IMG/VR virus record: IMGVR_UViG_3300044825_002216
Direction: 5' to 3' (one strand)
Source of the DNA: an uncultured virus (IMG/VR IMGVR_UViG_3300044825_002216)
Taxonomy: Duplodnaviria > Heunggongvirae > Uroviricota > Caudoviricetes
DNA: 64,000 bases
Shown: one piece after another, positions 434 to 49,885 of the stretch
How positions within the stretch are numbered: the stretch's first letter is position 1
Layout of the letters: every line of letters starts with the position of its first letter
The notes under the pieces: generated by a model
Seen by the model: only the letters and a program-made list of their open reading frames with translations
Database searches by the model: none
What the model was told of the DNA's origin: nothing
Program-made: the position numbers and the translations under genes

Positions 434-509
434 GGGACCGTAGCTCAATTGGTTAGAGCCCCCGGCTGTGGACCGGGGAGTCAGGGTTCGAGCCCCTGCG
501 GCCCCACCA
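434..509 (+). tRNA. tRNA-His (GUG)
   Basis: Full cloverleaf: acceptor GGGACCG/CGGCCCC (one A-C mismatch), D arm GCTC/GAGC, anticodon stem CCCGG/CCGGG with GTG at 468-470, T arm CAGGG-TTCGAGC-CCCTG, encoded CCA. Confidence 0.95.
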
Positions 510-709: not shown

Positions 710-1144
710 ATGAAGAAGTGGAGCGAGATTCGCGAGGGTACTTACGGCATCGAGACTGTCCTGCTCCGGCGGCTAGCAGACGCAGCCGCCGCCGCTGGCG
801 AGGATGCGTTGGAGCAGAGCATCAAGGTCGACGACCAGACCCAGGTGGCGAAGGAAGTCGCGTCGGCTCTGCTCGGCGCGCACGGTGAGATGGGCGCCCT
901 CATGGTTGTCGGCGCGATCCTCGCGACGATTCAAGAGTCGTCAGACACCAAGCTCGGTGAGCTGCTCGGCACCAAGCCGGACGGGACAGTGAACGAGCTG
1001 AGCCCCGCGCGGGACTTCGACGCGGCCCACCACGCGACGATGGAAGCCTTGAGCGGCCCCGCGTTCCACCTCGTGCAGAACATCTGGTCCGTGCTGCTCG
1101 TGCATCACCAGGCCAAGGCTGTCGCGGCGATCAGCGAGGAGTGA
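710..1144 (+). CDS. hypothetical protein
   Basis: 144-aa ORF with phage-like codon bias; stop overlaps the polymerase start (GTGA). Confidence 0.8.
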   Translation: MKKWSEIREGTYGIETVLLRRLADAAAAAGEDALEQSIKVDDQTQVAKEVASALLGAHGEMGALMVVGAILATIQESSDTKLGELLGTKPDGTVNELSPARDFDAAHHATMEALSGPAFHLVQNIWSVLLVHHQAKAVAAISEE

Positions 1145-3825
1145 TGCACACCGCGAAGATGTACCGGCATCTGCCGATCTCTCCGCTGTCCGACATGGAC
1201 ATGGAGCGGCTGGCGACAGACTCCAACTGTGCGCGGTGCTCGCTCGCGCTGGGAGCCAGCACGATCTGTATGGACGCAGAGCTCTCCAACACGACTGGCA
1301 AACCCGTCGAGGGTGATCCGGTCATGGCTCTGGTCTTGGACTACCCCAGCCGCAACGAGGACGCGACGGGGCGGCCGATGGTGGGCCAATCAGGGCAGCT
1401 CCTCCGCGATCTGGTGAAGAAGCACTGGAAGGGGAACGTCCTGATCGACAACGCCGTTCGGTGCTCTCCTGGCCGCACGGAGGTTGACGAGTCGAACGTG
1501 GATGCCTGCCGCCCGTATGGCGCGGATCGGCTTTCCGGGTTCAACGGGAGCATCGACCGCATCCTCACGATGGGGACGTGGGCAAGCTACTCAGTCCTGG
1601 GGTTCAAGGTACCCACGCTATCCGCGAGGGGCGGATACGGCTGGTACTTGGACGAGTCCAAGATCGAGCAGGGTATGCGAGCGGCGCTCGTGCCCGTGTA
1701 CATCTTGCCGAACCCCACGGCAGCCTTGCGCAATCACTTCCTGCGCAAGGACTTCGTATCGGACTTCGAGTACGCGGCTACGCGCCCGACTCCAGCGTTC
1801 GACGTGATCGACGCTCAGATCAAGCTGGTCGAGGATTGCAACGACGCAGTGGATTTCGTTGCGTGGGCGCACCAGCAGTCGGCGGTCGCGTTCGACACCG
1901 AGACCGCCGGGAAGATGCACAACCGCAACTTCCGGGTGCACGCGGTCAGCTTCGCTTCGCCAGACGACCCCTCCGTCGTGTGGGTGTTCGGTCGCAAAGC
2001 CCTGAGCGATCCGAAGGTCGTCGCGTGGCTCAAGCACATCTTGGAGAACGAAGACATCTCCAAGATCGGGCACAACATCAAGTACGACATGCTGGCGATG
2101 TGGTGCGCGTTCCGCATCCAGACCCAAGCAGTCGACCTGCACGACACCCGCCTGATCCGCAAGCTCTTGGAGGCGACCATCGACGGTGGCCTCGACGTAG
2201 CTGCAACGCTCGTCGGGATGGGCGGCCACAAGCGCGAAGCGAACGACGCGATCAAGGCCATCCGAAAAGACCTGGCAGCGCTCGCAGGGGAGGCGAATCG
2301 TAAGCCGCTCGCCTCGGGCAAACCGAGAGCCCCGGTGAAGACCGCGTACCTCGATCGTGCGGAGGTGGAGAACAGCCACCTCGAAGAGATCAGGGCCGGG
2401 GAGGATACCTGGACGTTCGCCTACGGGTATCTGCCGGACGACATCCTGCACCGATACAACGCGATGGACGCCATGGCGACGGCGATGCTCTTCTCGCGCG
2501 TCCTACCCAGGATCACCGCACTGCCTGGGCGGCTCGCCGTCTACAACGAAGTCTCGATGACTGCCGTACGGGCGTTGTTCGAGATGGAGAAGTGGGGGCT
2601 CAAGCTCGACACGATGGCCGTACAGCAGTTCAGCATGTACCTGAACATGAAGCTGGACGCGATCGACGCGCGCTTGAAGGTCTACGGCGAGGTCAACTTC
2701 GACTCGCCGAAGCAGCTCGCAGAGCTGCTGTACGACAAGCTCGGACTGACCGAGCCGAAGAACTCCCGCACCGCGAGTGGGCAGCGCGGCACGGGCGAAG
2801 AGGTGCTGCTCCAGCTCGCCTCCCAGCACAAGATCGTCCGAGACATCCTCGAACGTCGCACGCTGGTGAAGCTCAAGGGGACGTACGCGGACCCGCTGAT
2901 CCGGTACCGCCGAGACGACGGGCGCGTTCACTCGACGACGCTCACGGACGGCGCGGAGTCGGGTCGCTTGTCGAGCCAAGACCCGAACATGCAGAACGCA
3001 CCCTCTCCCGACCGGGATGAGGAGGGTGGCGAGCAGTACGGGCACATGAGCCGCGACTGCTACGTGGCCGAGGATGGCTTCATCTTCTTGGAGGTAGACA
3101 CCAAGCAGCAGGAGGCTCGCGTTGCAGCGAAGCTCTCTGGCGATGATGTCCTTCTAGGCTGCTTTTCCTCTGGCGAAGACATCCACCGCACCACCGCTTC
3201 GGTGGTCTATGGGATCGCGCCAGGGAATGTCACGAAGAAGCAGCGGTCGGATTGTAAGACCGTGTTCTTCGGCCTACTGTACGGCAAGACGGACTACGGG
3301 CTGGCCAAGCAGCTCGGGATCACCGACAAAGAGGCGGCCCGTATCCGTGGGGTCATCCTCGGGCGCTTCAAGAAGCTCGCCCGATGGTGCTTGAAACAGG
3401 TTGAGTTCGGCCGCGAGCACGGCGGCGTCTTCACTTGGTGGAACGGGCACGCAGAAGCGCGTTGGCGCCCGCTCTACGGCATCGCTGCCCAAGGCGACGA
3501 AGGCAAGGGGCAGCGGTTCAACGCGGAGAACAGCACAGTCAACACGCCCATTCAGGGTCTCGCCGGGGACATCGTAACGGCGAGTCTGTGGAAGCTGGTG
3601 TGCGCGCTCCGCGAGGAGCGGATCGAGGCCCGGCTCGTGAACACGGTGCACGACTCAATGATGGTCGAGGTTCGCATCGGCCAGGAGCTCGCAGCGGCTC
3701 GCGTGATGAAGGCGGCCATCCTCTCGCAAAACTGCGAGGGTGTAGACCTAGACGTGGACTTCAAGAAAGGCGCGTCGTGGGGCTCGATGGCTGAGTGGAA
3801 GCCGAACTTTTCGGAGGCAGCGTGA
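1141..3825 (+). CDS. family A DNA polymerase with N-terminal uracil-DNA glycosylase family 4-like domain and 3'-5' exonuclease
   Basis: UDG4-like CARC...EDATGRPMVGQSGQLL...NAVRC..; Exo I FDTET, Exo II GHNIKYD, Exo III YNAMD; SGRLSSQDPNMQN; motif A DTKQQEAR, motif B RSDCKTVFFGLLYG, NTPIQG, motif C VHDS. Confidence 0.95.
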   Translation: MMHTAKMYRHLPISPLSDMDMERLATDSNCARCSLALGASTICMDAELSNTTGKPVEGDPVMALVLDYPSRNEDATGRPMVGQSGQLLRDLVKKHWKGNVLIDNAVRCSPGRTEVDESNVDACRPYGADRLSGFNGSIDRILTMGTWASYSVLGFKVPTLSARGGYGWYLDESKIEQGMRAALVPVYILPNPTAALRNHFLRKDFVSDFEYAATRPTPAFDVIDAQIKLVEDCNDAVDFVAWAHQQSAVAFDTETAGKMHNRNFRVHAVSFASPDDPSVVWVFGRKALSDPKVVAWLKHILENEDISKIGHNIKYDMLAMWCAFRIQTQAVDLHDTRLIRKLLEATIDGGLDVAATLVGMGGHKREANDAIKAIRKDLAALAGEANRKPLASGKPRAPVKTAYLDRAEVENSHLEEIRAGEDTWTFAYGYLPDDILHRYNAMDAMATAMLFSRVLPRITALPGRLAVYNEVSMTAVRALFEMEKWGLKLDTMAVQQFSMYLNMKLDAIDARLKVYGEVNFDSPKQLAELLYDKLGLTEPKNSRTASGQRGTGEEVLLQLASQHKIVRDILERRTLVKLKGTYADPLIRYRRDDGRVHSTTLTDGAESGRLSSQDPNMQNAPSPDRDEEGGEQYGHMSRDCYVAEDGFIFLEVDTKQQEARVAAKLSGDDVLLGCFSSGEDIHRTTASVVYGIAPGNVTKKQRSDCKTVFFGLLYGKTDYGLAKQLGITDKEAARIRGVILGRFKKLARWCLKQVEFGREHGGVFTWWNGHAEARWRPLYGIAAQGDEGKGQRFNAENSTVNTPIQGLAGDIVTASLWKLVCALREERIEARLVNTVHDSMMVEVRIGQELAAARVMKAAILSQNCEGVDLDVDFKKGASWGSMAEWKPNFSEAA

Positions 3826-40351: not shown

Positions 40352-41038
40352 TTACGTGGTGCCCGGACTGTCGCTGTCCGTGACCGTCAGCGCGAATCGA
40401 GGCGGGAGCGCCTGCGTTCGCGAATACATGCGTACCACAGGAGCGCGGGCGGATACGTTGAAGACCGACCGCCGCGCTCGGCTTTGAGCGTCCTGAGCGT
40501 TGTCCTCGAAGTCCGCGCTCTCCAACGAATAGTCTGCGTAGACCCCGTGGTAGTACGGCAGCATCAATCGCACGCCGTACATCCAGTCCGTCGGGTTCAG
40601 CCCGTCTTCGATCATCTTCGCGAGTGCGGAGCGCTCTTGAAGCTCCGTCGAATGGATGATGAGGCGCAAATCCAGGGTCGCTTCCGCCGTGAACCCTACC
40701 CACAGGTCGTCGGACACTTTCGTCCGGCTCAAGGCGGGGGTCATGCGGGAGTCGTCGAACACCACGCTTCCAGTCGTCACGACACCCGAGGGGTACTTCG
40801 CCTCCACCTCGGCTTCGGCCCACTGGAGGATCACGTACTTGAGCTTGAAGGTCTTTCCGGGCAACCCGACGACCGACAAGCTCTGCACGTAGTCTCGCAG
40901 CCCGCGCGCAATGCAGGTCCGCACGTCACCCTCGACACGCGGGGTGAGCACTTGCGGCTGGTTCGCCTTGAGGATCAGGCCCGCCCGGTCTTGAACCAGG
41001 GGGCCTGCGGGCGGCGAGTAGTTCGTTTGCGAAGTCAC
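40352..41038 (-). CDS. tail terminator or sheath stabiliser, putative
   Basis: Synteny (before sheath); GTG start coupled to upstream stop; YPS..V..DL pattern. Confidence 0.6.
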   Translation of the reverse strand: MTSQTNYSPPAGPLVQDRAGLILKANQPQVLTPRVEGDVRTCIARGLRDYVQSLSVVGLPGKTFKLKYVILQWAEAEVEAKYPSGVVTTGSVVFDDSRMTPALSRTKVSDDLWVGFTAEATLDLRLIIHSTELQERSALAKMIEDGLNPTDWMYGVRLMLPYYHGVYADYSLESADFEDNAQDAQSRARRSVFNVSARAPVVRMYSRTQALPPRFALTVTDSDSPGTT

Positions 41039-41514
41039 TTGAGCCCCGAGCGTAGCGCAAGCTGAAGAATCATCCGTAGCTTGGTGCTCGTGTTCTCGAC
41101 GGTTTTCGAGAGGATGTTGTAGGCGGGGAGGCCGCGCTGCTTGATCTTGCGGGCGATCAGGAAGGCGATCTTCCGGCGCTCGATCGCCCGCGTGTCCGGC
41201 ATCTTCCGGCGAACCCACGGGATGATCTTCTTGAGCGGGGGCATCTTACGGAACTTCGCCCCGGCCTCGATCACGCCCGCGTACGGGGTGGTGTTCACGA
41301 GCTGAAGGGACTTCCCCAGCTCGATCACCTTCCAGCCCTTGAGGTACGCCCCCGTGTCCTTGATCCCCGCGGAGGTGGTCAGCGACTTGGCCTCGTCGAG
41401 AAGGACACGCCCCATGATCGGGATGGCCTTCGCAATGGCCTTCTCAGCATCACGGCCGACCTTCTTCGGGATCGCGCTGATCTGCGAGAGGGGGAGCTTC
41501 TTCTTGACGCTCAC
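41035..41514 (-). CDS. tail completion or neck protein (HK97 gp10-like)
   Basis: DTGAYLKGW, NTTPYAGVIEAG, MPPL..I.PWVRRK..AFLIARKI..RG. Confidence 0.8.
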   Translation of the reverse strand: MSVKKKLPLSQISAIPKKVGRDAEKAIAKAIPIMGRVLLDEAKSLTTSAGIKDTGAYLKGWKVIELGKSLQLVNTTPYAGVIEAGAKFRKMPPLKKIIPWVRRKMPDTRAIERRKIAFLIARKIKQRGLPAYNILSKTVENTSTKLRMILQLALRSGLK

Positions 41515-42077: not shown

Positions 42078-42491
42078 CTAACCCCTGACGCTGATGTTCC
42101 CCGCACCGCCGGGGCCGGAGCCCTTGAAACGGGTGGCGAACGGGTAGACGGGGACGCCCAAGTCCTCCGCGAGGCGGAAGGCCCAGCGCTTGTACTCGCT
42201 CTCCAGCATCGCGAGGTGTTCCTTGCGAATCTCCAGCTCACCCATGCGGTTCACGGCCAGGTACTTCTGGCCGTCGATGAGCTGGCACTCGATGCTGTCG
42301 AGCGTTGCGATCCTCTCGCGGATCGTCGGGATGTACTCCTCCAAAACCTTGTCCATCGCCGACTCGACGAGGAACATGGTCTGGAGGGGCTTGGGAACAC
42401 CAAGCTGGATCGACGCCATCGCGGAGACGTTGGGGTACCCGAGGTGGTGCCGAACCTTCGCACGCTCTTGAAGCGACAGGATGTCGGCCAT
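42078..42491 (-). CDS. head-tail adaptor, putative
   Basis: LSLQERAKVRHHLGYP helical pattern; GGAGG SD; first neck-type gene. Confidence 0.65.
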   Translation of the reverse strand: MADILSLQERAKVRHHLGYPNVSAMASIQLGVPKPLQTMFLVESAMDKVLEEYIPTIRERIATLDSIECQLIDGQKYLAVNRMGELEIRKEHLAMLESEYKRWAFRLAEDLGVPVYPFATRFKGSGPGGAGNISVRG

Positions 42492-42501
42492 CGGGAACCT
42501 C

Positions 42502-42804
42502 CTACTCGATCATCTCCAGCGGGGCCTGCATGTCGAACAGCGCCTTGAGAAGGGCCGGGCCGTCTTCTGCGGAAAGCACCTTGTCCTTGCGGACCAGCAC
42601 GGTCTTGCCGGGCATGAAGACCTTGGTGTCCGCGAGCAGGCGGTACTTGGGCTGCGGGGGCAGGACCACCGGCATCGGGGGACCGCTCGGGGCGTCGTCC
42701 ACCTCGACGGGGATTTCCTCTTCGCCCGAGTCAGGCGCCTCGAACGCGGCGACCTTCGCAGCTTCGAGCGGGTCTACGAACTGAGGCTTGCGCTTGCTGG
42801 TCAT
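42502..42804 (-). CDS. hypothetical protein
   Basis: ATG 42804 with GGAG SD (paired in the upstream RNA). Confidence 0.7.
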   Translation of the reverse strand: MTSKRKPQFVDPLEAAKVAAFEAPDSGEEEIPVEVDDAPSGPPMPVVLPPQPKYRLLADTKVFMPGKTVLVRKDKVLSAEDGPALLKALFDMQAPLEMIE

Positions 42805-43134
42805 GGCAACTCCGATAGGGGTGGCAGCGGGCGAGCCTAGACCCGGTGGCGATAGATACTCTGGTAACCGCCAGAGACGGAACATCGCTCGTTGTCTAGG
42901 CTCGCCCAGGAGTCACACCCCCGGCGAGGGGGCGGAGCATCCCTTGGAACGACAGTACACCACGAAGGGTGACTGTTTCCACGCTGCCGGAACGAAGGGC
43001 GTGCCTACGGGGTAAGCCGAGGTTTGCCCTCCTCGTGTCCTCATTGTGTTGGCTTGGTCTGTACACCGTACATCCCCACTTTGAGGTGACTGACCCAAGT
43101 GGCTTGCCAGCCGGTTTGGGCATCGGAGTCGCCA
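42804..43134 (-). ncRNA. large multibranch structured RNA or leader
   Basis: 13-bp closing helix 43134-43122 / 42816-42804 with nested helices; at least 5 G-U pairs work only on the - strand; upstream TTGACT-N16-TACGCT. Confidence 0.7.
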
Positions 43135-43158
43135 AAGGCGATTCTCAGTCGTGATTGG

Positions 43159-43186
43159 AGCGTACAGGGGTGCCCAGAAAAGTCAA
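43159..43186 (-). promoter_or_regulatory. sigma70-like promoter
   Basis: TTGACT (43186-43181)-N16-TACGCT (43164-43159), overlapping the capsid terminator. Confidence 0.5.
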
Positions 43187-43223
43187 CGGCTCGGACTCCG
43201 GGGTGGTGGAGTCCGAGCCGTTG
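43176..43223 (-). terminator. intrinsic terminator after the major capsid gene
   Basis: 16-bp stem CAACGGCTCGGACTCC/GGAGTCCGAGCCGTTG followed by ACTTTTCT; a second 12-bp hairpin at 43275-43302. Confidence 0.7.
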
Positions 43224-43308
43224 TGGTTCCCGCGCGAGGAGTAGGGTGCGCAGGCTCCTTCTTGTTTGGCGAGCGTGGTGTAACTCGTTGGAGTTACACC
43301 ACTATTCG

Positions 43309-44706
43309 CTACGCATGCTCGATCACGACGCAGCGCTTGTACCGTGCCGCGTCGCCCGAGCAGGCATCCGTGCGAACGGGCCAGTCGCCGATGAGCTGCC
43401 AGGTGAGAGCCACCTGGTCCTGCAAGCGGTTCAGCGGCGCGCGCATCACCATCTGCACGCGGTCGGTGAACACCTCGATCGAGTTGTTGCTGATCTTCGG
43501 CTCGACGACCTTGCCGGTGACGCCCGCCTCCGAGATGAGACCCGCGAGGTCTTGGCACATCTCGAAGCAGAGCTCCGGGCCGGTGAGCAGGATGCGCTCG
43601 ATCGGCGTGCCCGTCGTGGCGCCCGTGTTGTACAGCTCGCCCGCGAAGTCGTCCTTGACCGAGAAGGTCGCCGTGTCGCCGCCGCGAACCGTCGCCACCG
43701 TCGGGCACTCGGAGTTCGTGATGAGCGCCGTGTTCAAGATCACGCCGAGCGTGAACTGCTTGTACATGTAGTAGTCCGGCAAGCTCTGGTTGAGCCGCTG
43801 GAACTCCCCGTCCTCGTAGAATCGCGCTTCCGAGTTGGGGCTCATGTGCCCGTGGTAGTAGCCGTCCTGGTGGCGCGACACGTTCATCGAGCGCATCCGG
43901 GTCACCGCCGAGCGCAGCGTCGAGAGCGTCGCCACGTCCGAGGAGCTGATCGCGTCCACCTTGTCGCCGCCACCAGCGCGGACGATCGAGGTGCGGTCGA
44001 TCGACTTCACGTACGCGCGGTCCGAGACGCTGGTGGTGCCCGAGAGCAGGGTCAGCGTGCCGGGGCCGATCTCGTCGCCCAGCGTGTCGGGCGTGTAGCC
44101 AATGACCTGGAAGGTCGCTTCGGCGCCGTTGTCGAACACCGTGATCGTCAGGGGGTTCGAGCTGCTGACCTGCGAGAAGCGAACCTGCGAGCCCGACGAG
44201 AGCAGGGGGTTGCGCGCGCGAGTGAAGCCGTTGAGGCGCTTCACGCGGAGCGTGGTGCCCGACTGCGCACCGTCGGCGACGGTCCAGCCCGAGAGAGCCG
44301 CGTTGTACATGCGGTTGCGAACCTTGCGGTTCAGCGATTGCGCCGCCTGCATCCCGAGGCGCTGCATCGAGCGAACGAAGAAGTCCGCGATGGCGACCAT
44401 CGAGGTCGGCATGTCCACGTCCATCGTGCCCGTGTACCGGCGCATGACGGCTTCCCACTGCTCGGCCGACGACTGCATCGGCGTGGGGTCGGTTCGCGGG
44501 GCGATCGGCTCGGAGTCGGGCTGGAGCAGGCCGTCCGCGGTGAAGACCACGGTGTCACCACCGCCCGCGGGCCACGCCTTCGCCACGACTTCCGAGCGAA
44601 AGAGCTGCTCGGGAAAGAGCGCGTCGTGAAACGCACGCTCCAGAGCGTTGTCCTGCACCAAGTCCCGCACGTACGGGTCTTGAACGATGATGCTGAAATC
44701 CGGCAT
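43309..44706 (-). CDS. major capsid protein
   Basis: 465 aa with the strongest codon bias; follows the scaffold, precedes terminator and neck genes; HK97-fold-like YYHGHMSP and RAPLNRLQ..LTW segments. Confidence 0.85.
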   Translation of the reverse strand: MPDFSIIVQDPYVRDLVQDNALERAFHDALFPEQLFRSEVVAKAWPAGGGDTVVFTADGLLQPDSEPIAPRTDPTPMQSSAEQWEAVMRRYTGTMDVDMPTSMVAIADFFVRSMQRLGMQAAQSLNRKVRNRMYNAALSGWTVADGAQSGTTLRVKRLNGFTRARNPLLSSGSQVRFSQVSSSNPLTITVFDNGAEATFQVIGYTPDTLGDEIGPGTLTLLSGTTSVSDRAYVKSIDRTSIVRAGGGDKVDAISSSDVATLSTLRSAVTRMRSMNVSRHQDGYYHGHMSPNSEARFYEDGEFQRLNQSLPDYYMYKQFTLGVILNTALITNSECPTVATVRGGDTATFSVKDDFAGELYNTGATTGTPIERILLTGPELCFEMCQDLAGLISEAGVTGKVVEPKISNNSIEVFTDRVQMVMRAPLNRLQDQVALTWQLIGDWPVRTDACSGDAARYKRCVVIEHA

Positions 44707-44753
44707 GGGTTCCTGTCCCTCGTTGAACCGGCGTCACCCGCCGGATTGACTGT

Positions 44754-45635
44754 CTAGTTGACTCCGACGCCCTTGCTACGAAGGTACGCCTTGAACTCTT
44801 CGGGCTTGAGCCTGCTCACGTCCGTTCGGCCGTTGCTGGGCTGAGCGCTCGGAGCAGGGGGCGTTGCGTTCACAGCCCCGCTCGTGATCTGAACGCTGCT
44901 GCCAGGCTTGTTCGCCTGGCTCGGGTTCTCCGGCAGACCCGTGGTTGCAGGCTGCTGTACCTGCCCGAAGAGGTACGGGTGCTTGGCCTTGAGACCGCGG
45001 AAGTAGCCGCGCTCGTCGAACGCGCGCAGCTTGGCCTCGTCCATCCCGTTCGTGTGCTGGCGGATCAAGTGGATCGCGTAATCGAGGTCCACGATCCCCT
45101 CGCTGGCAGCGATGCTGCGCAGCTCGCCCTCGGCAGCGTTCGCCAGGGCTTCGCGCTTGGCCTCTCGGGCTGCGCGTTCGACGCGCGCCTTCTCGCGAGC
45201 GAGGCGTTCGTTCTTGGCGCGCAGGTCGTCCCGCTCGCGCAAGATGGCCGCGTAGTCCACCGAGCTGTCGCTCGAAGACGGGCGGGACTCTCGCTGCGGG
45301 ACAGACGCGCCGGGCTGAACCTTGGGCTTCGCCACCGGAGCGGACGGAGCCCTCGAAGCAGCCTTCATCTTCGCTGCGGCAGCCTTCATCGACTCCACGT
45401 CGGCGAATCCGAGCTCCTGGGCGAGCTTCTTGTTCGCGGCCTGGCCCGCCTCACGCTTGATCTTGCCCACCTGATGAGTGGGCATCTGGACGAACTTACC
45501 CGCGGGCGTGGTCGCATCGACCTTCACCTCGGGCTTGCTGCCCTGCTCTTGCGTGGACGTGCCGGGGGCCCCGTTGCCCGCTTCGGTTCCCTGATTCTGC
45601 TGATCGACTTCCATGACGCTCGCTCCCTGTCGCAC
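44754..45635 (-). CDS. capsid scaffolding protein
   Basis: Disordered plus coiled-coil sequence, LKAKHPYLF motif, C-terminal PEEFKAYLRSKG helix, directly upstream of the capsid gene. Confidence 0.8.
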   Translation of the reverse strand: MRQGASVMEVDQQNQGTEAGNGAPGTSTQEQGSKPEVKVDATTPAGKFVQMPTHQVGKIKREAGQAANKKLAQELGFADVESMKAAAAKMKAASRAPSAPVAKPKVQPGASVPQRESRPSSSDSSVDYAAILRERDDLRAKNERLAREKARVERAAREAKREALANAAEGELRSIAASEGIVDLDYAIHLIRQHTNGMDEAKLRAFDERGYFRGLKAKHPYLFGQVQQPATTGLPENPSQANKPGSSVQITSGAVNATPPAPSAQPSNGRTDVSRLKPEEFKAYLRSKGVGVN

Positions 45636-48830: not shown

Positions 48831-49445
48831 CTACTCCTTGTGTGCGAGGCACACGTCCCACTTGTACGCGAGCGATGGGAAGGGCGGTGGCCCCAGATAC
48901 TCAAGGAACCGATCCGTACCCTCGTACGTGAAGGCGATGTTGTAGCTGCGCCTGCGTATCTGAGGATTGACCGTCGCACCAAAGAGGTCGCGCAGCCGCT
49001 CCACTAGTCGCAAAACCTGCTGGGGGGCGAAGCCTTCTGTACAGAGCATCGCAAACCGGCGCTTACGGTTCGACGCCTTCATGGTGCCGTCACCCAAGTA
49101 CCAATGAAGCAGCGACACACGGTCAAGACGCACGTCGTTGGGGCATACCTTGCGCCGTTGCGGGTACCAACGGTGCGCCTGCTCAGAGAAGGTCGGGTGC
49201 GCTTGCGCCTGTAGCCACCAGATTTCGCTTTCCCTTCCGCTTTTGCAGACGTGGGTGCGATCATGGCGGGTAGACGCGCGCAAGCCCATCGCGGCCATCT
49301 GGTCCCGCAAATCAACAAGCCAGTCGAGCGAGACACTCGACTGGCGGTAGTAGGAGTTACAGGCCCGACGAGGCCCATCTATGGGTGGGAGCCAAAGGCT
49401 CCCGTCCCCAAGGAGCAGGCCGTCAAGAAGGCTGAGGTTCATCAC
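48831..49445 (-). CDS. LAGLIDADG homing endonuclease (double motif)
   Basis: LDGLLLGDGSL and LLHWYLGDG motifs; CTEGF; P..SLAYK C-terminus. Confidence 0.9.
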   Translation of the reverse strand: MMNLSLLDGLLLGDGSLWLPPIDGPRRACNSYYRQSSVSLDWLVDLRDQMAAMGLRASTRHDRTHVCKSGRESEIWWLQAQAHPTFSEQAHRWYPQRRKVCPNDVRLDRVSLLHWYLGDGTMKASNRKRRFAMLCTEGFAPQQVLRLVERLRDLFGATVNPQIRRRSYNIAFTYEGTDRFLEYLGPPPFPSLAYKWDVCLAHKE

Positions 49446-49885
49446 AATCGGAGGATACGCCGTCTCACTCGCGCAGCAACCTCCGGCGTGTTGCCGTCGC
49501 CGGAATCCTCGACTGCCTTCGCTACCTCTCGGTCTTCGTCGTGGATGCAGTCATGGCAGCGGGCACACAGGGTCACGATGTTGTTGGGCGTGTTGCTCTT
49601 TCCCTTGCGAAGGAGCCACCGTGAGATGGGCGCATCCAATCCTGCTTTGTGATGGACGAGCAGATCAGTCTGCCCGCCGCATTTCTTACACTTCCACTCG
49701 TCTCGACGGAACACGCCGAGAACCAACGTGGACGGCAAACCACCCTTGCCGCCCGAGTGGAGCGAAGCTCCGCGCTGGTGAGCCTCTTTACGGATCACCC
49801 GCAGCGCAGCGTTCTCTTCGGAAGTGGACTTCCGACGAGTCTCGATGCGCTGCGGGCGCGTAGCGTTCGCGAGTGCGCTGCCCAC
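49442..49885 (-). CDS. HNH endonuclease (possible packaging-associated)
   Basis: VFRRDEWKCKKCG..LLVHH...NNIVTLCARCHDCIH. Confidence 0.88.
   Translation of the reverse strand: MGSALANATRPQRIETRRKSTSEENAALRVIRKEAHQRGASLHSGGKGGLPSTLVLGVFRRDEWKCKKCGGQTDLLVHHKAGLDAPISRWLLRKGKSNTPNNIVTLCARCHDCIHDEDREVAKAVEDSGDGNTPEVAARVRRRILRL

Follow-up and report, generated by a model that had tools for sequence, protein, structure and literature searches.

The major capsid gene of phage T7 is followed by a leaky terminator, T-phi. The put RNAs of phage HK022 and EAR are processive antitermination RNAs, and phage phi29 encodes a packaging RNA, the prohead RNA. Large and complex RNA folds that have been kept through many compensatory changes are rare, and the earlier cases are ribozymes, riboswitches and ribonucleoprotein scaffolds. 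GOLLD, ROOL and OLE are large ornate RNAs of bacteria and phages (PMC12286853). We analyzed a stretch of 64,000 nucleotides from an uncultured virus of the Caudoviricetes (IMG/VR record IMGVR_UViG_3300044825_002216; this whole stretch is called the window below) and identified, in the gap behind its major capsid protein gene, a conserved and by prediction intricately folded RNA which is absent from Rfam. The RNA lies directly before the ribosome-binding site of the next gene (gene 2). The original prediction, made from the letters of the window alone, had proposed an undescribed large multibranch phage RNA at this site, and the conservation through compensatory changes together with the lack of an Rfam match agrees with that description. 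As to its function, we tentatively prefer a cis-acting leader that would tune the expression of gene 2 and of the neck and tail genes behind it on transcripts escaping the capsid terminator.

Predicted Fold and Covariation of the Post-capsid RNA

The minus strand of 42804-43134 (331 nt) folds with a minimum free energy (MFE) of -165.7 kcal/mol. Dinucleotide shuffles of the same stretch gave a mean of -126.0 kcal/mol (sd 5.6, n = 100), which corresponds to a z of -7.15, and none of the 100 shuffles folded as well; the folding energy is therefore below that of shuffled controls, a comparison on which the original prediction could have failed. The MFE structure consists of a 13-bp closing helix, three nested hairpins and a junction helix with three arms. 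Every helix listed in the original prediction is present in it, and the at least five positions that had been noted as G-U on the minus strand and A-C on the plus strand correspond to 6 G-U among the 115 pairs of the fold. The parts of the RNA, in the order in which they would be transcribed, are as follows.

43129-43141, minus strand: small hairpin H1 (5-bp stem, 3-nt loop), read from the sequence; its 3' strand overlaps the 5' strand of P1
43122-43134, minus strand: 5' strand of P1, a lineage-specific closing helix, from the MFE structure
43093-43121, minus strand: hairpin H2 of the 5' domain, common to the relatives L001 and L029, from the MFE structure; 4 compensatory pairs compared with L001 and L029 in the MAFFT-based consensus fold
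43039-43086, minus strand: hairpin H3 of the 5' domain, common to L001 and L029 only, from the MFE structures of the window, L001 and L029; no alignment with L134
42992-43036, minus strand: helix H4, conserved throughout the members read; its internal loop is A-rich, its apical hairpin varies, and 3 of its pairs are compensatory
42982-42988, minus strand: 5' strand of the four-way-junction helix J, pairing with 42829-42823
42945-42981, minus strand: arm a, a long hairpin with a stable tetraloop (model helices 2-4)
42909-42943, minus strand: arm b (model helices 5-6)
42830-42907, minus strand: arm c, with a 14-bp outer stem, inner stems and a candidate pseudoknot, from the model and a constrained search
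42816-42829, minus strand: 3' strand of J (42829-42823) and a short conserved single-stranded tail (model positions 166-172)
42802-42816, minus strand: ribosome-binding site of gene 2, which is also the 3' strand of P1, with the Shine-Dalgarno sequence at 42814-42811 and the start codon at 42804-42802

The internal loop of H4 is short and A-rich on both strands, and the 3' strand of this helix runs directly into the junction helix. The outer stem of arm c is a perfect 14-bp helix (42907-42894 with 42842-42829).

The capsid protein has 145 relatives in viral contigs, in which it is full length, and loci of such relatives (L numbers) were compared with the window. The consensus fold from an unfitted MAFFT alignment of the window, L001 and L029 has 99 pairs, and compensatory double changes are seen at 29 of these. 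Two family alignments (A7 and A10) were fitted to the model structure, which inflates the paired percentages. When 11 distinct sequences are aligned under guidance of the model, 94.9% of the 468 cells hold standard pairs, against 60.9% in shuffles and 36.5-46.0% in controls in which the partners were slid by 1-3 columns, and 49 of the 54 pairs show compensatory change on both sides. With 7 distinct sequences 95.9% of the cells are paired, against 66.3% in shuffles, and 44 of the 54 pairs are compensatory. The unfitted alignment agrees with the fitted ones in direction. Compensatory change is spread over the whole junction region: it is seen in 4 of 6 pairs of the junction helix (model helix 1; 95.1% of cells paired), in 11 of 12 pairs of arm a, in 11 of 11 pairs of arm b (84-90% of cells paired) and in 14 of 14 pairs of the outer stem of arm c (98.6% paired). 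Covariation and conservation in relatives, proposed as a check in the original prediction, are thus present in both kinds of alignment.

The plus strand of the same stretch folds about as well as the minus strand (-168.0 kcal/mol, z -6.44), and energy alone therefore does not choose the strand. In the family alignment 14 cells hold G-U and 2 hold A-C, indicating that the minus strand, which is the gene-sense strand, is the transcribed strand, as had been assumed before any relatives were known. The same observations bear on the explanation that the gap does not act as RNA, either because a 79-aa open reading frame (ORF; 42896-43135, minus strand) is a gene or because the inverted repeats act as DNA. 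The ORF exists and the nearly equal folding of the two strands would suit this explanation; the substitutions, however, preserve base pairs and not codons, and the excess of G-U over A-C points to RNA. The ORF was rejected as a gene: neither Pfam nor PHROG has a family for it, tblastn against 9 family loci reached an E-value of 0.36 at best (22 against L001), and the homologous region of L029 contains an ORF of only 48 aa. A conserved protein at this place would have refuted the original prediction. We consider it very improbable that the gap acts other than as RNA.

The extent of the conserved unit is smaller than the approximately 330 nt originally proposed. The conserved core measures about 220 nt (43036-42816), because the hairpins 5' of H4 align only with those of L001 and L029. 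It consists of H4 and the four-way junction, and other lineages carry different and often longer 5' hairpins; compared with L134, nothing in the 5' domain aligns except H4. Family members measure 330-480 nt in all, and the window contains the most compact full element seen.

Arm c holds a candidate H-type pseudoknot, in which the loop of the inner hairpin can pair a few nucleotides downstream, across an A/U-rich linker. Its first stem (S1) is formed by 42880-42878 and 42870-42868, and loop 42876-42871 pairs with 42864-42859. In a constrained search this arrangement was found in 13 of 14 regions (the exception is L123). A second stem of at least five Watson-Crick pairs is possible in 9 of the 14 regions, compared with 260 of 1400 shuffled ones, and 11 different strand sequences are used; the pseudoknot is weak in L001 and L029. 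We regard it as a candidate only, because MAFFT gave no single column register and a looser, generic pseudoknot finder performed no better on these regions than on shuffles.

Comparison With Catalogued RNA Classes

Searching the whole window with Rfam 15 gave a single match, a tRNA at 434-506. A search of 42600-43400 at E <= 10 returned nine weak matches, all below the gathering threshold and the best of them on the terminator hairpin, and a search of eight other family loci at E <= 1 returned nothing in the RNA. The expectation that no known Rfam family would be hit was thus borne out in the window and in these eight loci. As far as Rfam holds them, the negative result spans group I and II introns, RNase P, tmRNA, riboswitches and small ribozymes, and also ROOL, GOLLD, OLE, HEARO and phage prohead RNA.

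Two known classes were considered individually and rejected. A group I intron, considered since genes for HNH and LAGLIDADG endonucleases lie nearby, does not fit, as the capsid ORF is complete (465 aa, as in relatives) and gene 2 has its own start codon; the start of gene 2 is homologous to that of relatives lacking the RNA, so that no gene is interrupted. Rfam gave no match to a group I intron core (P3-P9 with the P7 guanosine site) at E <= 10 in the window and at E <= 1 in eight members, a comparison with the Rfam models that did not include a search for the core helices by hand. A tRNA or tmRNA was rejected since ARAGORN finds only a tRNA-His gene in the window (434-509, plus strand, anticodon GTG) and, at 25 loci, calls none within the RNA. 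The topology of the four-way junction is that of a cloverleaf, but its arms are two to three times longer and the tail behind the junction has no conserved acceptor end.

This RNA may be among the candidates of Fremin et al. (2023; PMC10690425), who surveyed structured RNAs of viruses on a large scale. Six contig sample numbers were not found in six supplementary files of PMC10690425, with three further files lying outside this search.

Distribution and Position of the RNA in Relatives

An nhmmer profile built from the window, L001 and L029 detected the element, among 41 capsid loci, only in L001, the near-identical L022 and L029, the capsids of which are 65-66% identical to that of the window; nhmmer does not link the RNA subfamilies. 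A covariance model of the 3' half (R1, the junction with its three arms) found more distant copies in L015, L010 and L014. When a collection of 79 capsid loci was searched with R1, L137, L103/L125, L126 and L130 were added, and with the speed filters switched off L134, L141 and L123 were also found, which the default Infernal filters had missed (L134 at 60 bits). The R1 searches covered the collected capsid loci, and the family count is a lower bound.

On a tree of 72 distinct full-length capsids the RNA is present with confidence in 13 lineages, seven are borderline (12-17 bits, in the right place) and 52 have nothing. This distribution requires at least 8 changes on the capsid tree. It is clustered, with 10 of the 13 in one clade of 24 rows and only 2 of 500 shuffles giving as low a number; one of the two analyses behind these figures used a set of labels that was not yet complete. 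When contigs from viruses, metagenomes and genomes were scanned for motifs of the RNA, only contigs already known or chance matches in coding DNA came up, and these gave neither a host nor an RNA member outside the capsid clade. The RNA family, which is well established as an object, is as found here confined to one clade of uncultured contractile-tailed phages.

The position of the RNA is fixed. Every R1 match is on the gene-sense strand and directly before gene 2, and the distance from the end of R1 to the start of gene 2 is 11-24 nt in 12 of 12 measured cases, to which L130 adds a distance of 16 nt. Ten relatives with a gap of 80-160 nt have a terminator-type hairpin alone, followed by the ribosome-binding site. 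The RNA is thus an accessory insert between the terminator and gene 2, which is kept in some lineages and has been lost or exchanged in others.

Other cargo is found in the same gap. A gene for an HNH endonuclease with its own terminator lies between the capsid gene and the RNA in L001 (4439-5113), L022 and L029, and L130 likewise has an HNH endonuclease gene there (3114-3650). A mobile unit of endonuclease plus RNA was considered and dropped, the HNH proteins of L001 and L130 having only the HNH motif in common; in L004 such endonuclease genes occur at other intergenic sites too. The endonuclease genes beside the RNA mark an insertion hotspot and not a mobile unit. A tRNA-Tyr gene is present in the gap of L035 (2881-2967) and L036 (4531-4617), and in L035 (= L131) a borderline R1 match of 12.5 bits lies between this gene and gene 2. 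The gaps of L011 (4402-4765), L018 (4405-4700), L032 (4432-4745) and L034 (1471-1735) are 260-360 nt long and contain very stable predicted folds (-0.44 to -0.50 kcal/mol per nt) which R1 does not match; according to these predictions they may be different RNAs at the same hotspot.

Such a distribution raises the question whether the RNA acts in trans, as a stable non-coding RNA cut from the late transcript or made from an unrecognised promoter. Its place before gene 2 would then merely reflect an insertion hotspot in a compact genome, and it could be a scaffold or part of a ribonucleoprotein, a self-assembling ornate RNA, a decoy for host defence, or a head-completion or packaging RNA. This would fit the complex core, with its four-way junction, conserved A-rich internal loop and candidate pseudoknot, the short conserved single-stranded tail after the junction helix, the patchy accessory distribution (13 of 72 lineages with at least 8 changes) and the exchange of cargo in the gap for a tRNA-Tyr gene (L035/L036), HNH genes (L001/L022/L029 and L130) and unrelated folds (L011, L018, L032). 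Since the tRNA-Tyr at the same gap must be processed out, the RNA could be released likewise. It is harder to reconcile with the finding that the RNA was never seen, in the viral, metagenome and genome motif scans, other than directly before gene 2, and with the pairing of the 5' end of the window RNA with the ribosome-binding site of gene 2 beyond chance. In addition, the RNA has no terminator of its own in the window and no convincing promoter (no sites adjoining the RNA in five members scanned). We regard an RNA acting in trans as the main rival of a cis-acting leader and as somewhat less likely. The sigma-70 scan, which does not extend to phage-specific promoters, and the terminator scan, which found no terminator-like site between the RNA and gene 2 in the window, give no sign of an independent small-RNA gene with a promoter and a terminator of its own.

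Terminator and Promoter-like Signals Around the RNA

The features flanking the RNA in the window are listed from the capsid gene onwards.

43309-44706, minus strand: gene for the major capsid protein (465 aa; PHROG major head protein, E 7e-08), the upstream neighbour of the RNA
43275-43302, minus strand: perfect 12-bp hairpin lacking a U tail, immediately behind the capsid stop codon and upstream of the real terminator, read from the sequence
43174-43223, minus strand: intrinsic terminator of the capsid gene with a 16-pair stem and a T-rich tail, from the terminator scan (stem region 43223-43184)
43159-43186, minus strand: promoter-like hexamers with a spacer of 16, -35 at 43186-43181 and -10 at 43164-43159, matching the consensus at 5/6 and 3/6 positions
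42502-42804, minus strand: gene 2, encoding a 100-aa protein, the first gene after the RNA in every member

The capsid terminator that had been placed upstream of the RNA was recovered by the terminator scan, with its 16 pairs and T-rich tail. The promoter proposed for the RNA fared less well: the hexamers exist at the described spacing, but the -10 is weak and a sigma-70 scan of 42600-43450, which does not cover phage-specific promoters, gave no sites. The hexamers lie in aligned columns in L001, yet are below the sigma-70 threshold there too. No site adjoining the RNA was found by the sigma-70 scan in L001, L134 and L141, and L137 has one unrelated site at the capsid stop codon. In L014 and L015 the equivalent stretch forms hairpins with differing but still complementary arms, in an alignment read by eye. 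Transcription by read-through from the capsid gene or from a phage-specific promoter is as likely as transcription from a promoter of its own.

The position of the RNA inside an operon, where it follows a strong terminator and precedes approximately 25 kb of same-strand genes for neck, tail and baseplate, would also suit an element acting on transcription. Such an element could be an RNA that makes the polymerase resist later terminators of the neck/tail operon, or an attenuator reinforcing the capsid terminator. Several members (L134, L126 and L103) carry a U-rich tail behind the junction helix; the tail in the window has no U run. The antitermination RNAs that are known are far smaller, and Rfam gave no match to the post-capsid RNA. 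An action on transcription is improbable in our judgement.

About equally improbable is a module for RNA processing. It could be a self-cleaving ribozyme belonging to a new class, or a structured block by which host RNases are directed or halted, and in both cases the capsid message and the downstream message would differ in lifetime. The RNA does lie exactly where a very highly expressed gene gives way to genes needed in smaller amounts, and a compact fold with a pseudoknot and a single-stranded tail might be suited to block an exonuclease or to display a cleavage site. In the Rfam searches the RNA showed no likeness to catalogued ribozymes, and no invariant unpaired nucleotides marking an active site were identified.

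Pairing of the Ribosome-Binding Site and a Possible Leader Function

The original prediction had stated that the closing helix buries the first start codon of the operon behind the capsid gene. For the window this is what the structure predictions give. P1 (43134-43122 with 42816-42804) covers the Shine-Dalgarno sequence at 42814-42811 and the A of the start codon, and it stays in the MFE structure when the leader is extended upstream to its presumed 5' end and into gene 2. With p > 0.4, 43134-43122 is the sole high-probability partner of the ribosome-binding site, and the mean unpaired probability of positions -15 to +3 is 0.30. Of 1000 shuffles, 2 reached the 14 consecutive pairs that the ribosome-binding site can form with the 375 nt upstream of it. 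As a feature of the family the statement did not hold: among 13 lineages, the window, L126 and L123 are the three for which a long-range 5' partner of the ribosome-binding site is predicted, and the sequences differ between them. Burial of the ribosome-binding site is therefore a recurrent add-on and not a conserved function. Mutually exclusive pairings of the ribosome-binding site conserved across members, which would characterize a riboswitch, were likewise not found, given these 3 of 13 lineages.

A cis-acting leader, the reading we prefer, would work as follows. The RNA would be carried on the late message, on the gene-sense strand, after the capsid terminator and before the first post-capsid gene, and would set the output of gene 2 and of the neck and tail genes behind it on those transcripts that pass the terminator. 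In the window phage the 5' end of the RNA would have been recruited, so that a helix of 13-14 bp containing the Shine-Dalgarno sequence and the start codon closes the fold and hides the site, repressing translation. H1, which overlaps the 5' strand of P1, could provide an alternative pairing that leaves the ribosome-binding site open, and switching between the two might then occur. H1 in the window is a weaker version of a longer hairpin in the MFE structures of L001 and L029, with arms that have changed and are still complementary, and in these two relatives the start codon lies in or beside a small local hairpin formed with nearby sequence.

Several observations weigh against this reading. 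L001 and L029 lack the closing helix: there the homologue of the 5' strand of P1 forms the 3' arm of a local hairpin, and the mean unpaired probability of the ribosome-binding site is 0.67 and 0.60, respectively. For 10 of 13 lineages, with L001, L029, L137, L014 and L015 among them, the predictions give the ribosome-binding site no long-range partner, and its best complements in the other members span 6-9 pairs, equal to the median of shuffles. The core of about 220 nt, with its junction, internal loop and candidate pseudoknot, exceeds what the hiding of a ribosome-binding site requires. As 52 of the 72 lineages are without the element, and the ten relatives with a short gap have the terminator only, gene 2 does not need the RNA. 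That the core is so complex, and that most relatives can do without it, speaks for a role more specific than occlusion. Moreover, all RNA folds considered are predictions.

Genome Setting and Occurrence

The phage in the window has a high GC content and a contractile tail, and its virion genes are on the minus strand. Pfam domains found in the window include baseplate J and V proteins, a portal-type DUF4055 protein, a family A DNA polymerase, a gp32-like protein, a D12 methyltransferase, and LAGLIDADG and HNH endonucleases. The next conserved gene, gene 2, starts at 42804, as had been proposed, and the N-terminus of its protein is homologous to that of the first post-capsid gene of relatives, by tblastn and by a common N-terminal motif. 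Gene 2 has no Pfam or PHROG family match, and its atlas scores, including a weak lead to lambda FI-type packaging proteins, do not exceed 0.82 and are at chance level. The label neck/tail operon for the genes behind the RNA is fair, because 41035-41514 encodes a Neck1/tail-completion protein; gene 2 itself is without a known family.

Elsewhere in the window, two endonuclease ORFs lie back to back on the minus strand within the head-gene region, a LAGLIDADG ORF (48831-49445, Pfam E 4e-20) and an HNH ORF (49442-49885), and the Rfam scan called no intron RNA over 48831-49885. An 894-aa ORF on the plus strand (1141-3825) combines a domain of the uracil-DNA-glycosylase superfamily with a 3'-5' exonuclease and a family A DNA polymerase.

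The region 42300-44800 is complete, with all sampled words present, in five freshwater or river metagenome runs from three studies, and relatives or parts of it also occur in runs from activated sludge, a digester and wastewater. Runs labelled as a single cultured organism contain relatives or parts of the region as well, and these may hint at a host. No RNA run is among the sequencing runs listed as containing window sequence. Contigs of four DNA runs (freshwater, river and wastewater) are identical to the window over the parts they cover and thus provide no variants. The nearest record (G001) contains neither the RNA region nor the capsid gene. A blastn search of the RNA region against 50,697 phage records gave no match, and the best match of the capsid protein among these records has 30% identity.

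Significance and Relation to Known Systems

The RNA described here defines a family that has strong covariation, is absent from Rfam and keeps a fixed place, with the most highly expressed virion gene on one side and those for head completion, neck and tail on the other. The core might represent a new functional class of RNA, either a sensor of a small molecule or a virion protein that times neck and tail synthesis to head assembly, or a stable released RNA that assembles with phage or host components. We consider this doubtful, although not far-fetched. If the RNA senses something, the phage could match tail production to head production; as a free RNA it would extend the short list of large non-coding RNAs of phages. 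More ordinary outcomes, such as a stabilising leader, are also possible. The window phage offers a good handle on the function, with an RNA that is compact (approximately 330 nt) and linked to a ribosome-binding site through a helix that one can disrupt and then restore.

The resemblance to known systems is partial in each case. With leaders that sequester the Shine-Dalgarno sequence and with translational riboswitches, the post-capsid RNA shares a conserved folded domain directly upstream of a ribosome-binding site and, in the window phage, a long helix that hides the Shine-Dalgarno sequence and start codon and overlaps a small hairpin. It differs in that the sequestering helix is not conserved (3 of 13 lineages), in the lack of an Rfam riboswitch match and in a core larger than most aptamers. 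The arrangement around T-phi of T7 is similar in having a strong hairpin terminator right after the capsid gene that lowers transcription into the next virion genes; here a complex conserved RNA has been added after the terminator, and the relatives with a terminator alone show that both are separable. Like the put RNAs of HK022 and EAR, the RNA is a cis-encoded structured RNA inside an operon and upstream of a long run of genes, but it is much larger and matches none of these in Rfam in sequence or structure. With the prohead RNA of phi29 it has in common that a structured RNA encoded by a phage is tied to head genes, and its pairing of a loop with downstream sequence could be intermolecular, whereas size, architecture and genome position differ and an Rfam match is lacking. 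GOLLD, ROOL and OLE resemble it as large, elaborate, phage-carried RNAs with an accessory distribution, and in relatives of the window phage tRNA genes occur at the same locus; the post-capsid RNA is smaller, has a fixed place before one gene and does not match their Rfam models. The nearest functional analogues of the post-capsid RNA are thus the leaders that sequester a Shine-Dalgarno sequence and the throttling of transcription by terminators after capsid genes, and in kind it is closest to the large ornate phage RNAs, while being a member of none of these groups.

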